NCBI GenBank assembly: GCA_963833285.1
Contig: CAWHXM010000005.1
Location: 419,436-483,435, forward strand
Source of the DNA: an uncultured Chloroflexia bacterium
GTDB taxonomy: Bacteria; Chloroflexota; Limnocylindria; Limnocylindrales; CSP1-4
Direction of reading: 5' to 3'
Length of the DNA: 64,000 nucleotides
In this document: in pieces, positions 20,001-33,943 of the stretch
Layout: each line of letters opens with the position of its first letter
Numbering within the stretch: position 1 is the stretch's first letter
Translations under genes and position numbers: made by a program
The notes under the pieces: model-generated
Databases searched by the model: none
What the model was told of the DNA's origin: nothing
The model's input: the letters and a program-made list of their open reading frames with translations, nothing else

Positions 20001-20850
20001 ATGTGGGACTACCCTCGACAGGTGGACGCACCCTCGGCTGTCGGTCGCCATCACGGTCGACCACGACGCGATCTCGGATTCGGTCAGGCGGGGCGACGCG
20101 CCGGTCAAGTTCAGCCACGCCGAGTTCGGGCCGCGTGTCGGGGCGAAGCGGATCCTCGAGCTGCTCGAGCGGCGCGGGATCCCGGCGACCTGGTTCGTGC
20201 CCGGTCACACGCTCACCACCTTCACCGACGACACCGACGCGATCCTGGCCGGCGGCCACGAGCTGGCCTGCCACGGCTGGTTCCACGAGGACTTCGCGGA
20301 GCTTCCCGCCGACGCGCAACGCGAGGTCCTGCGGCGATCGGTCGAGGCCGTCCGGGCGATCACCGGCGCGGCGCCGGCCGGCTTCCGGGCGCCGTACTGG
20401 TCGCTCGGCGCGACGACGCTCGACCTCGTCGAAGCGGTCGGCTTCCGATACGACAGCTCGCTGATGGCCAATGACTACGGCCTTTATCGGGTCCGTCACG
20501 GCGACCGCCATTCGGTCATCGACGGCTCGCACTGGGGCCGGCGCGGTGCACTCGTCGAAGTCCCCGTGTACTGGGCGATGGACGACTGGCCGCACTTCGA
20601 GCCCGGTCCCGGGCGCCCCGGGCTCGCGGCGCCGTCGGCCGTGCTGGAGATCTGGACCGAGGAGCTGCGCTACGCCCACGAGCACGCGCCGGGCGGACTC
20701 GCGATGATCACGGTCCACCCGGAGTGCATCGGGCGCGGGCATCGGATGGCGATGCTCGAGCGGTTCATCGATGCCGCGGCGGCACGCGACGGGGTCGTCT
20801 TCGAACGGCTCGATGCCGTCGTCAGTCGCTGGTCGGCGGCGAACCCCTGA
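20001..20850 (+). pseudogene. PuuE/PgdA-like polysaccharide deacetylase with an apparent +1 frameshift or non-canonical start
   Basis: ITVDHD, EFGPRVG..RILELL, ATWFVPG, GHELACHGWFHE, GFRAPYW, YDSSLM, TVHPECIGR; the TVDHD motif lies upstream of the first canonical in-frame start (GTG 20197), while ATG 20001 is one base out of frame. Confidence 0.7.
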
Positions 20851-21532
20851 CGATCTGTCGGGCGCGTGCAAGCACATCCTCGAACATCGGCGCCGTCAGA
20901 CGGCCCGTGAACGTGTTCTGCTGGCTCGGGTGGTAGGAACCGAGCAAGATATAAGGCCCGACGACGGCCTCGGTCGCGTGTCCGAACCGAGGCTTCGGCC
21001 GCGCCGGATGCCCGAGCGAGGCGAACGCTCGAATGGCCGCGTCCCAGCCGAAGGCACCCAGCGCGACGACGACACGCACGTCCGACAACAGCCCGATCTC
21101 GCGAGCCAGGAACGGCGCACAGGCGTCGCGCTCGTCGATCGTCGGCCGGTTGAGCGGCGGCGCGCAGCGGACCGCGGCCGCGATGTAGGTGTCGGTCAGG
21201 GTCAGGCCGTCATCGGCACGGTGCGAGACGGGGCGATCCCCAAGCCCCTGGGCGTGGAGGGCCGCCCACAGGAAGGCTCCGGACGCGTCGCCGGTGAACA
21301 CCCGCCCGGTCCGGTTGCCGCCGTTGGCCGCGGGGGCCAGGCCGACGAGCAGGATCCGCGCCTCCGGGTCGCCGAATCCCGGGACCGGTCGCCCCCAGTA
21401 TGTCTCATCGCGGAACCGTGCCACCTTCTCGCGGGCGACCCGCTCGCGCCACTCGACGAGCCTCGGACACCGTCGGCACGAGACGATCTCCTCGGTCAAC
21501 GCGGCCAGTGCCGCCCGGTCGGGCACCGGCAC
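20822..21532 (-). CDS. Uracil-DNA glycosylase family 5 (UdgB-like, 4Fe-4S)
   Basis: CRRCPRL, GLAPAANGGNRTGRVFTGD, AVRCAPP, SYHPSQQNT. Confidence 0.9.
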   Translation of the reverse strand: MPVPDRAALAALTEEIVSCRRCPRLVEWRERVAREKVARFRDETYWGRPVPGFGDPEARILLVGLAPAANGGNRTGRVFTGDASGAFLWAALHAQGLGDRPVSHRADDGLTLTDTYIAAAVRCAPPLNRPTIDERDACAPFLAREIGLLSDVRVVVALGAFGWDAAIRAFASLGHPARPKPRFGHATEAVVGPYILLGSYHPSQQNTFTGRLTAPMFEDVLARARQIVRGSPPTSD

Positions 21533-22332
21533 TACTTGAGCAGCAGCAAGTCGATCCGCCGCGACGCGATCGCCAGCCCGACGATCCCCATGATCGCGAG
21601 ATACGCGACGTGGACGAGCAGGATCGGCGAGATCGACCCGACCGTCAGCGAGCGGATGAGGTCGACGCCCTGGTACAGCGGCGTGATCCGGACGAACAGC
21701 TGGAGCGCCGGCGGGTACGCGTCGATCGGGTAGAACGTGCCGGAGAACAGGAACATCGGCAGGACCACGAGCTGGATGAGGTCGAAGTCCTGCCACGTCT
21801 TCATGAACGACGTTGCGGCCATGCCTACGGCACCAAAGGCGAACCCGACGAGCAGCGCGGCCGGCACGGCGAGGATCACCCAGGGCGACACGAACAGGCC
21901 GAGGATGAGCATCACGCCCATGAACCCGACGGCGTACAGCCCGCCCCGGATGAGCGCCCAGCCGAGCTCGCCGACGGCGATGTCGCCGGGTGACAGCGGC
22001 GTGGCCAGGATCGACGTGAACGTCTTGTTGTAGTTGAGCTTGAAGAAGAAGTTGAAGGTGCTCTCGGTGATCGCCCCGTTCATCGCGGCGCTGGCGAGCA
22101 GCGCCGGCGCGACGAACAGCTGGTAGCCGATCTCCTGGCCGCCCGGTCCCGGGATCGTCCCGATGAGCGCGCCGAGGCCGAACCCGATCCCGAGGAGGTA
22201 GAACAGCGGCTCGAAGAAGCCCGAGAACAGGATCATCCAGCCGTGCTTGTAGACGTACAGGTTGCGCTCGATCAGGCGCAGCGAGCGGCGACTCCCGAAG
22301 GCGAGCCCGGGCACGACCCGCAGGGCAGTCAT
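21532..22332 (-). CDS. ABC-2 type transporter permease (NodJ-like)
   Basis: FFEPLFYLLGIGFGLG, FVAPALLA, ILATPL..GDI..GE, PMFLFSGTFYP. Confidence 0.9.
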   Translation of the reverse strand: MTALRVVPGLAFGSRRSLRLIERNLYVYKHGWMILFSGFFEPLFYLLGIGFGLGALIGTIPGPGGQEIGYQLFVAPALLASAAMNGAITESTFNFFFKLNYNKTFTSILATPLSPGDIAVGELGWALIRGGLYAVGFMGVMLILGLFVSPWVILAVPAALLVGFAFGAVGMAATSFMKTWQDFDLIQLVVLPMFLFSGTFYPIDAYPPALQLFVRITPLYQGVDLIRSLTVGSISPILLVHVAYLAIMGIVGLAIASRRIDLLLLK

Positions 22333-23123
22333 CCGAGCACCAGCCGGGCCCCGATGGTGCGGATCGTCAGCCACGCCCCGACCGTGGCCAGGGTCGTCAG
22401 GTAGATGACGTGGAGGGCCGCGGCGACGGGCTCGTCCATGAGCGTCCCGAGCGACAGGCCGCGCGTCAGCGCCACGCCGTGGAACAGCGGCGTCAGCCAG
22501 GCGAACGCCTGCAGCGCCGCCGGCAGCGAGCTGATCGGGAAGAACGTCCCCGAGAACAGGAATAGCGGGGTGATCCCGAAGCGGAAGATCGTCGAGAACT
22601 TGGCCGGCGTCTTCTGCGTCGCGCTGAACGCGGCGATCGGCCCGGCGAAGGCCATCCCGGTCAGGACCGCGGCGGGGATGGCCAGGACGATGAGCGGCGA
22701 TTCGGCGGCGCCGAAGGCGACGATGACGATGGTGAAGATCGTCGCGATCATCGTCAGTCGCGCCGCGATCCAGGCGAGATTGCCCAGCGCGATGTCGCGC
22801 GGCGAGATGGGCGTGGCGTACATCCCGTGGAAGATGCGACCCCAGACCAGGCCGGACATGATCGGGAAGGTGGCCTCGAACGACGCCGACTGCATCGCCG
22901 TCGCGGCCAGCAGCCCCGGAGCGAGGAACACGAGGTACGGCACGCCGCCGATCGCCGCCGAGTCCGACACGTACGACCCGAGCCCGATGCCCATCGCGGT
23001 CAGGAACAGGATCGGCGACAGGAACGACGAGAAGATCGACGCCCGGAACGTCCGCCGATACGACAGGAAGCGGTGTTCGAAGACGCGACCGATCGTCGAG
23101 CTGGGTCGCGCGAGCGTTGTCAT
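22329..23123 (-). CDS. ABC-2 type transporter permease (NodJ-like)
   Basis: FLAPGLLA, MYATPISPRDI..G, PLFLFSGTFFP, PLFHGVAL. Confidence 0.9.
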   Translation of the reverse strand: MTTLARPSSTIGRVFEHRFLSYRRTFRASIFSSFLSPILFLTAMGIGLGSYVSDSAAIGGVPYLVFLAPGLLAATAMQSASFEATFPIMSGLVWGRIFHGMYATPISPRDIALGNLAWIAARLTMIATIFTIVIVAFGAAESPLIVLAIPAAVLTGMAFAGPIAAFSATQKTPAKFSTIFRFGITPLFLFSGTFFPISSLPAALQAFAWLTPLFHGVALTRGLSLGTLMDEPVAAALHVIYLTTLATVGAWLTIRTIGARLVLG

Positions 23124-33260: not shown

Positions 33261-33907
33261 GGCTGGAACGCCGCCGGCTCGGCGATCCGAGCCTCGGGCA
33301 CACCGACGCTCCGCAACAACAGCGCGCGCAGGGTCGGATAGACCGTCTCGAGCGGTTCGGGATCGTCGACCAGCAGCCAGCGCGCGACGACCTCGTTGAG
33401 GGAACCGAACCAGGCCACGCCGGTCAGGGCGGTATCGATCGGCGGGATCGTGCCGGCCTCGATCGCCTCATCGAGGTACCCGGCGATCATCCCGGCGAAG
33501 CGGTCGTGGAGGGCGTTCGTCTCGGCGTTGAAGACGCGCCCGGCGCCCATCGCGTCGACGAACAGCAGGCGCGCCATCGTCCGATGGCCGGCGAACGTGA
33601 CCAGAACCGTGCGCAGGGCGGCGTCGGCGCGGGCGATCGGCTCGGTCTGTTCGGCGACCGCCCGTTCGACCTTGACCGCGAGCCGGTCCGCGGTCGTCCG
33701 CATCAGCTCGCGGAAGATCGCCTCCTTGGTCGGGAAGTGGAAGTAGACGCCGCCCTTGCTCGTGTCTGCGGCGGCGGCGATCTCGTCGACCGCGGTGTCA
33801 CGGTAGCCGCGACGCGTGAATGTGTGGAACGCCGCATCGAGGATCTGCTCACGGCGGGCCCGACTCCGCTCCGCCTGGGTGGGCCCCCGACCCTCGTTCC
33901 GGCTCAT
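33257..33907 (-). CDS. TetR/AcrR family regulator, first gene of the men operon
   Basis: RREQILDAA..F..RGY..T.VDEIA..A..SKGGVYFHF; GTGA overlap with menF. Confidence 0.93.
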   Translation of the reverse strand: MSRNEGRGPTQAERSRARREQILDAAFHTFTRRGYRDTAVDEIAAAADTSKGGVYFHFPTKEAIFRELMRTTADRLAVKVERAVAEQTEPIARADAALRTVLVTFAGHRTMARLLFVDAMGAGRVFNAETNALHDRFAGMIAGYLDEAIEAGTIPPIDTALTGVAWFGSLNEVVARWLLVDDPEPLETVYPTLRALLLRSVGVPEARIAEPAAFQP

Positions 33908-33929
33908 CGTTCGCTCCGCCACCAAACCG

Positions 33930-33943
33930 ACCGACCGGTCGGT
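33930..33943. promoter_or_regulatory. Perfect 14-bp palindrome, probable TetR operator
   Basis: ACCGACCGGTCGGT, 23 nt upstream of the TetR ATG. Confidence 0.65.

Follow-up and report, generated by a model that had tools for sequence, protein, structure and literature searches.

Many bacteria use menaquinone (vitamin K2) as their main respiratory quinone, and an excess of menaquinone or of its precursors is toxic. We analysed a stretch of 64,000 nucleotides (contig CAWHXM010000005.1, hereafter called the window) from the genome of a soil Chloroflexota bacterium of the class Limnocylindria (3.02 Mb, 7 contigs), in which a gene for a TetR-family regulator precedes the genes of classical menaquinone (men) biosynthesis, followed in turn by genes for an ATP-binding cassette (ABC) transporter of the ABC-2 type and for a protein of the uracil-DNA glycosylase (UDG) superfamily. 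Control of the pathway has been described at the level of the enzyme MenD, which is subject to allosteric feedback by 1,4-dihydroxy-2-naphthoate (DHNA) in Mycobacterium tuberculosis (bioRxiv 10.1101/841569), in Staphylococcus aureus (PMC9835592) and, by modelling, in Lactococcus lactis (PMC12421875); the last of these studies, from 2025, still regards the control of quinone levels as poorly understood. The described proteins nearest to our regulator are PfmR (TTHB023; PDB 3vpr), a TetR-family protein from Thermus thermophilus HB8 that represses phenylacetate and fatty-acid genes and has the published binding site TACCGACCGNTNGGTN / CTGACCGGTCGGTCAG (PMC7022988), and the acyl-CoA-binding FadR (YsiA) of Bacillus subtilis and Bacillus halodurans (PDB 1vi0, 3whb/3whc, 5gp9/5gpc).

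A first reading of the window (hereafter the original prediction) had suggested that these genes may form one ligand-responsive unit that makes and possibly exports naphthoquinone intermediates. We propose instead that two units of different age abut here, namely an autorepressed tetR-menFDHBACEG operon and an older ABC-2/udg module, and we consider this reading probable. The first unit would extend from 33955 to 24085 on the minus strand and comprise nine genes, probably transcribed as one mRNA. The second, from 24072 to 20822, is a four-gene module that appears to be an older neighbour in most of the family. A TetR dimer most likely binds a palindrome in front of its own gene and represses that gene together with all genes of the classical menaquinone pathway; DNA binding by the dimer would change with a small-molecule ligand. 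We infer autorepression from the combination of a unique operator at the transcription start, the conserved position of the TetR gene as first cistron and the coupling of the nine genes.

The sequence preceding tetR on the minus strand, TACGAT-GCACAT-ACCGACCGGTCGGT-CGGTTTGGTGGCGGAGCGAACG-ATG, places the 14-bp core of the predicted operator, ACCGACCGGTCGGT, 6 nt past the -10 hexamer and 22 nt ahead of the tetR start codon. The core therefore covers the expected transcription start, which is the classical position for a repressor. This palindrome is present exactly once in the 3.02-Mb genome. Upstream of tetR in related loci, the arrangement CCGAC-N(1-9)-GTCGG is found in 93 of 101 cases and a TAnnnT hexamer, most commonly TAGGAT or TACGAT, ends 3-16 nt ahead of the operator in 84 of the 101, with TTGACA located 17-18 nt upstream in several relatives. 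Among relatives of the same class, the operator often takes the longer form AACCGACCGACCGGTCGGTCGGTT and follows a TAnnnT hexamer in nearly all cases. That TetR is a dedicated regulator heading the men operon, as originally predicted, is borne out by this unique predicted operator over the predicted transcription start; TetR, operator and tetR/menF overlap are all conserved across the class. The limits first given for the block, 20822-33943, needed an amendment. The gene content was confirmed, but 33943 is no start codon, being instead the final base of the operator palindrome. For tetR, the ATG at 33907 is the supported start codon, preceded by GGAG as in close relatives.

For the class-wide comparison, we collected 80 loci using the TetR protein (61-91% identity); the majority of the relatives compared are metagenome-assembled genomes. 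The loci related to the window all belong to Chloroflexota, with labels that are mostly Limnocylindria or Limnocylindrales. In every locus of the set with sufficient sequence, the men genes follow the TetR gene in the order found in the window, with an occasional gene missed. TetR and menD also go together within the family, where 10 genomes harbour both genes, 13 harbour neither, and a single one has menD only; in this exception menD lies 1.7 kb from a contig end, at which tetR would fall off.

We then examined an even sample of 401 Chloroflexota genomes, using PF02621 as a marker for MqnA and MqnD of the futalosine (mqn) route to menaquinone and crossing the positions of TetR genes with those of menD and MqnA/D; in three genomes, adjacency was deduced from coordinates only. 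A TetR ortholog is present, in single copy, in 111 of the 401 genomes and in 57 of 217 genera, with 30-55% identity beyond the family. In 52 of the 111, menD is located 1.3-1.9 kb downstream of TetR on the same strand, a distance that corresponds to one menF length, and in 34 an MqnA/D gene follows 70 nt to 4.8 kb downstream, also on the same strand. The pathway gene is elsewhere or differently oriented in 10 others, at least two of which have tetR and menD as near neighbours on opposite strands. Inspection of 20 loci of the phylum revealed tetR-menF-menD plus further men genes in 12 of them. In three loci (L163, L164 and L174), Pfam identifies the gene immediately downstream of tetR as a radical-SAM/CofH_C gene of MqnE/MqnC type, and PF02621 genes also come after tetR in the first two. 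Men-type and mqn-type TetR loci alike have an operator of the form AAACCGAC-N-GTCGGTTT after the -10 box. The occurrence of the same TetR and operator ahead of either men or mqn genes argues for a regulator of menaquinone synthesis that is independent of the pathway.

Two variants of this organization were seen. In two genomes of one family (G210:C96 and G219:C204), tetR and menD are close but on opposite strands, the regulator being divergent and not the first cistron. In another locus (L167, G305:C3:634500-648700), the genes that come after a TetR ortholog and its operator-like site encode an NMT1-like binding protein, a UbiA prenyltransferase and an amidohydrolase, and the genome has neither menD nor PF02621.

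A TetR protein with a palindromic operator is a known kind of system, and this protein, as judged from its sequence, passes those family tests that could be run. Its helix-turn-helix (HTH) domain spans residues 22-68, and the protein also matches TetR_C_24. The AlphaFold model (mean predicted local distance difference test, pLDDT, 88.4) comprises 10 helices; the top 50 Foldseek matches in the PDB are all TetR-family proteins, with FadR-type TetRs as the closest folds and PfmR (3vpr) and FadR (1vi0/3whb) as the closest sequences. The protein scores below the NCBIfam equivalog for FadR (NF053878, 59.7 bits versus a cut-off of 200). An alignment revealed 32 positions kept in both men-type and mqn-type TetRs, half of which lie in the ligand-binding domain (F105, R109, F137, L145, A148, G152, P156, W166, G168, V174, W177, L193, R194, L197 and S200).

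The signal sensed by this regulator is most likely common to the two routes. Chorismate, polyprenyl diphosphate, S-adenosylmethionine and prenylated quinones are metabolites of both pathways, and DHNA and o-succinylbenzoyl-CoA (OSB-CoA) belong to the classical route only. The original prediction had put forward DHNA or OSB-CoA as the ligand; the evidence argues against both, since futalosine operons, which make neither, are headed by this TetR and operator too. Our first choice would be the prenylated pool (menaquinone, menaquinol or demethylmenaquinone) and our second chorismate, a men-specific intermediate being unlikely. The FadR-like fold of the model, with a tunnel for a long hydrophobic chain, would fit a prenylated quinone and equally an acyl-CoA. 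TetR relatives such as DesT illustrate that DNA binding can be either strengthened or weakened by a ligand, and control could therefore go in either direction in our case. It is possible, and we put it forward tentatively, that TetR senses the prenylated naphthoquinone pool, perhaps its redox state, that it is ancient in Chloroflexota and was kept through the swap between the classical and futalosine routes, and that in the clade of the window the loss of the spacer after menG placed the pump and the glycosylase under quinone-dependent control. If TetR does sense the quinone pool, no other transcription factor dedicated to the homeostasis of respiratory quinones would have preceded it.

All 13 co-oriented genes are on the minus strand of the window, which has a GC content of approximately 71%, and the frames are fixed by the positions of the stop codons. 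As gene calling based on the GC content of third codon positions (GC3) alone is too noisy at this composition, we fixed the genes through family searches and junctions, and named them from NCBIfam and Pfam profile searches against the curated cut-offs (Table 1). Six of the eight Men enzymes (MenF, MenD, MenH, MenB, MenA and MenG) exceed these cut-offs. The UDG-superfamily protein is below the models of family-4 uracil-DNA glycosylases (TIGR00758, 55 versus 125; NF040953, 59 versus 250). The cluster itself has no gene for the DHNA-CoA thioesterase MenI, as first noted, but this may be unremarkable, given that three 4HBT hotdog genes, which might supply the activity, are located elsewhere in the same genome.

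The eight successive junctions from tetR to menG read GTGA, ATGA, GTGA, ATGA, GTGA, ATGA, ATGA and ATGA, with the start codon overlapping the TGA stop codon of the preceding gene each time. The menG gene ends with TAG, and the ABC ATPase gene starts 12 nt further. Both the run of 4-nt overlaps and the 12-nt gap had been correctly read in the window by the original prediction. Within the downstream module, 10 nt separate the ATPase and permease 1 genes, the permease genes share an ATGA overlap, and the GTG start of udg has one base in common with the TAG stop of permease 2. The absence of visible terminators was likewise confirmed, as none of the block junctions harbours a terminator-like site; the only two matches are inside menA, a number within the expectation from shuffled sequences. 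No Rfam family matched between 19500 and 35500. A consensus promoter scan of positions 20000-35000 gave zero matches; it missed the tetR promoter as well and is therefore uninformative on internal promoters.

In the related loci, overlaps of 4 nt were found at the tetR/menF (69/74), menF/menD (79/82), menD/menH (68/73), menH/menB (56/70), menB/menA (43/70), menA/menC (47/70), menC/menE (47/65) and menE/menG (36/52) junctions. Such an overlap is thus present in 61-96% of loci for the men junctions, as against only 1 of 12 for the junction between menG and the ABC ATPase gene (abcA). The chance expectation of approximately 12% per junction is a rough estimate without a computed control, and the counting favours an overlapping start wherever one is available. 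It is their conservation across relatives, rather than statistics on a single genome, that indicates that the overlaps are not due to chance; they are ancient.

The downstream module has a different distribution. Loci collected with permease 1 fall into two groups, in which the module either comes after menG, in close relatives, or occurs where there is no tetR-men block. In the second group (approximately 20 loci), it follows dnaK and a MenA-like gene on the opposite strand. We searched 13 of these men-less genomes in full. They harbour no true menB (best match 39% identity, versus 58-95% for orthologs), no menD above the cut-off and no MqnA/D (PF02621), and 10 of them lack menG as well, the other 3 having retained it. 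All 13 keep the ATPase and both permeases, and also udg where the locus extends so far, with 67-89% identity. Of the 61 genomes of the family, 53 harbour permease 1, with or without men genes. No operator is present in the men-less loci, save two unrelated chance-like matches.

Among 25 men-bearing Limnocylindria, the module is located at most approximately 3 kb downstream of menG in 18, at approximately 10 kb in 1 and elsewhere in 6. In 16 men-bearing loci that we inspected, the distance from menG to the ATPase gene amounts to 57-88 nt in 3, 1.4-3.1 kb in 12 and 9.9 kb in 1, and Pfam identified the inserts of six loci as genes for MFS transporters, a GGDEF protein, an HTH protein or, on the opposite strand, a sulfatase. 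Where such an opposite-strand gene separates the two units, the module must have its own promoter. Neither the window's genome, in which no second copy of the operator precedes the ABC genes, nor 16 loci with ABC genes apart from men has an operator before these genes. The module itself is compact, with the two permease genes overlapping in 30 of 32 loci and a gap of -20 to +30 nt between permease 2 and udg in 25 of 29, and the menG/abcA gap varies among close relatives (median 33 nt). The inspected loci in which TetR precedes mqn genes showed no ABC-2 genes. These data indicate, from comparative sequence analysis, that the ABC-udg module is a separate, older unit abutted by the men operon in this lineage, and that its substrate is probably not an intermediate of the men pathway. 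The suggestion that the transporter belongs functionally to the same unit and exports naphthoquinone intermediates is thus not supported, and the tetR-men-ABC synteny that was to be checked across relatives does not hold throughout, as the module is unlinked to men in 6 of the 25 men-bearing genomes, which counts in part as a refutation.

The men-less relatives call for some additional remarks. Their MenA-like UbiA prenyltransferase gene flanks the ABC module and is read from the other strand (L013:6991-8448, L017:6011-8071, and the corresponding position in L009 and L012-L030); it is accompanied by genes for an F420-type luciferase-like oxidoreductase and an Rce1-like protein. Its best matches are MenA models, all below cut-off, and its sole homolog in the window's genome is MenA; it may reflect salvage of the head group or a different prenylated product. 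The menG genes retained in three of these genomes (L012:7064-7801, L017:8197-8928 and L024:2860-3594) are 78-79% identical to that of the window and are found upstream of the ABC ATPase gene, directly in L012 and L017 (51 and 127 nt) and at 5.5 kb in L024; without the rest of the operon, they look like scars of a men operon deletion. A switch of these relatives to the futalosine route was rejected, PF02621 being absent in all 13. They might have kept a late-step salvage pair of MenA and MenG, but menG is present in only 3 of the 13 genomes and the MenA-like protein is below the MenA cut-offs. Lastly, the ABC-2 transporter genes (ATPase and two different permeases) have the UDG-superfamily gene as a close and constant neighbour across Limnocylindria (L001-L031), a pairing without obvious functional logic.

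Several observations weigh against the separation of the two units, or against a role of TetR dedicated to menaquinone. The proximity of the module to menG in 18 of the 25 men-bearing Limnocylindria is one, and the MenA-like prenyltransferase kept beside the ABC genes by the men-less relatives is another; the pump might conceivably be linked in some way to prenylated compounds. In the phylum, 15 of the 111 TetR-bearing genomes have neither menD nor MqnA/D, and the regulon may be wider or further variants of the pathway may exist. TetR is found in only 60 of the 152 menD-bearing and 37 of the 57 mqn-bearing Chloroflexota, and hence it is not a universal requirement. Finally, the nearest folds and sequences are those of acyl-CoA-binding FadR (3whb/3whc and 5gp9/5gpc, template modelling (TM) scores of 0.76-0.89) and of PfmR, whose binding site is nearly the same as the predicted operator. 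This last point would favour a FadR/PfmR-type sensor of acyl-CoA or lipid status that couples quinone synthesis to the metabolism of membrane lipids and does not read the quinone pool. We consider such a role improbable, given the low score with the FadR model, the single operator of the genome, which lies ahead of the men operon only and not of fatty-acid genes, and orthologs that, in at least 86 of the 111 genomes, go with a menaquinone operon of one or the other pathway.

The linkage in relatives, the MenA-like neighbour and the short terminator-free gap would also suit a single functional unit of tetR, men, ABC and udg genes, in which the ligand of TetR is a naphthoquinone intermediate (DHNA, OSB-CoA or a menadione-like compound) and such molecules leave the cell through the pump, as redox shuttles or for detoxification; TetR proteins do frequently control exporters. 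This is very unlikely in light of the 13 genomes that keep the module without menB, menD or MqnA/D, of its presence in most genomes of the family, of the unrelated and opposite-strand genes that come between menG and a module devoid of its own operator, of the lack of ABC-2 genes in the inspected TetR-mqn loci, and of a TetR and operator that also head futalosine operons, from which DHNA and OSB-CoA do not arise. A different question is whether the abutment has regulatory consequences in this genome. The ABC-udg genes could be transcribed mainly from a promoter of their own inside the 3' end of menG, in keeping with the independence of the module in most relatives and with a non-overlapping menG/abcA junction that varies among close ones. 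We find this somewhat doubtful, as no terminator follows menG and read-through would be hard to avoid; the failure to find a promoter-like site does not count, given that the scan also missed that of tetR. As only 12 nt, devoid of a terminator, come between menG and the ATPase gene, read-through from the men promoter into ABC-udg is rather probable in this genome, and it is compatible with our proposal of two abutting units of different age. A word of caution is in order, as this junction gave a probably unrelated pump the appearance of belonging to the pathway, and the units were told apart only by comparing relatives.

Table 1. Features of the tetR-men and ABC-udg region. Positions are those of the window; scores are in bits, followed by the curated cut-off. 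SEPHCHC, 2-succinyl-5-enolpyruvyl-6-hydroxy-3-cyclohexene-1-carboxylate; SHCHC, 2-succinyl-6-hydroxy-2,4-cyclohexadiene-1-carboxylate.
Feature	Position	Strand	Evidence and remarks
XRE-type gene remnant in dnaK-tetR spacer	34004-34522	+	HTH segment deleted, in-frame stop
Terminator-like hairpin after dnaK	34626-34650	-	CGGCCCGCAG-GGAAA-CTGCGGGCCG then CTTCGATTCT (T-rich tail); read from sequence
-10-like hexamer of the tetR-men promoter	33950-33955	-	TACGAT; read from sequence
Predicted TetR operator, 24-bp inverted repeat	33923-33946	.	CATACCGACCG-GT-CGGTCGGTTTG; perfect 14-bp core ACCGACCGGTCGGT at 33930-33943
tetR, TetR-family regulator	33257-33907	-	216 aa, first gene of the operon; PF00440 59.9 versus 24
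menF, isochorismate synthase	31833-33260	-	TIGR00543 320 versus 225
menD, SEPHCHC synthase	30031-31836	-	TIGR00173 437 versus 244
menH, SHCHC synthase	29213-30034	-	TIGR03695 219 versus 209
menB, DHNA-CoA synthase	28389-29216	-	NF005637 436 versus 380
menA, DHNA polyprenyltransferase	27463-28392	-	NF004751 315 versus 264
menC, o-succinylbenzoate synthase	26342-27466	-	NF002782 154 versus 288 (below); Pfam MR_MLE_C; named by best hit and operon position
menE, o-succinylbenzoate-CoA ligase	24834-26345	-	TIGR01923 307 versus 330 (below); named by best hit and operon position
menG, demethylmenaquinone methyltransferase (UbiE/MenG)	24085-24837	-	Last of the conserved men block; TIGR01934 205 versus 158; PF01209
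ABC-2-type ATPase, NodI/DrrA-like	23134-24072	-	PF00005; NodI 322 versus 521, DrrA 281 versus 312 (both below)
ABC-2 permease 1	22329-23123	-	PF01061; NodJ TIGR01291 108 versus 207 (below)
ABC-2 permease 2	21532-22332	-	PF01061; paralog of permease 1, approximately 37-41% identity in tblastn cross-hits
udg, UDG-superfamily gene	20822-21532	-	PF03167 88.5 versus 24.3; CRRCP motif

Upstream of tetR, a spacer of approximately 700 nt leads to dnaK. The hairpin that follows dnaK is also found upstream of tetR in three close relatives (L052, L064 and L121), and together with the decayed gene in the spacer it sets the tetR-men transcription unit apart from hrcA-grpE-dnaK. The XRE-type remnant displays 51-64% identity (tblastn) to intact proteins of two relatives (L013 and L017), which harbour HTH_3/HTH_31 domains. 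Open reading frames of the spacer gave no Pfam match and were rejected as extra operon genes, being antisense or shifted frames of this decayed gene. The heat-shock genes are split in the window. On the same strand as tetR and upstream of it, hrcA (37208-38296), grpE (36652-37236) and dnaK (34683-36614) are together, and dnaJ is located at 17587-~18700; dnaK and dnaJ are separated by the tetR-men-ABC-udg block together with two polysaccharide deacetylase genes of the plus strand (~19100-19965 and 19966-20850). The 3' ends of udg and of the convergent polysaccharide deacetylase gene have 29 nt in common (20822-20850), with no terminator-like hairpin between the genes.

Our literature search, which left most subscription journals outside its coverage, did not bring up any dedicated transcription factor for men or mqn genes, and the one match for a TetR regulator of these genes was discarded because it matched only the word tetrathionate. 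The regulon of this TetR, menaquinone synthesis by either pathway, thus appears to be new, and the TetR-operator pair is apparently a real, hitherto undescribed regulator, to which a lineage-specific abutment of operons is added. A repressor-operator pair that, across a phylum, stands ahead of one or the other of two non-homologous menaquinone pathways represents a testable candidate for transcriptional quinone homeostasis.

Compared with known systems, the transporter resembles NodIJ and DrrAB in combining a PF00005 ATPase with two PF01061 permeases, and its best NCBIfam matches are NodI/DrrA and NodJ/DrrB, respectively. It differs from them by scores below all equivalog cut-offs, including that of DrrB (72 versus 223), by its two different permeases and by the close linkage of a UDG-superfamily gene. 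The allosteric feedback on MenD by DHNA concerns the same pathway and the same need to bound a redox-active, potentially toxic quinone pool; however, it acts at the enzyme level and in the classical pathway only, whereas the predicted DNA-binding regulator of the window heads either pathway. FadR provides the best folds (TM scores of 0.76-0.79 normalized on the query and 0.86-0.89 on the target) and a full-length sequence match (E-value of approximately 1e-12), and its ligand tunnel, which takes a long hydrophobic chain, would suit a polyprenyl tail too. FadR is only 22-24% identical to our TetR, which falls short of the FadR equivalog and whose predicted regulon is not beta-oxidation. PfmR is the best full-length sequence match in the PDB (E-value of 3e-14, with 27-28% identity in the fold alignment), it is autoregulated, and its site TACCGACCGNTNGGTN is nearly the same as the stretch CATACCGACCGGTCGGT of the predicted operator, such that the two proteins would have their DNA specificity in common. 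However, PfmR controls several promoters of fatty-acid and phenylacetate genes, whereas the site in the window is unique and heads a menaquinone operon.

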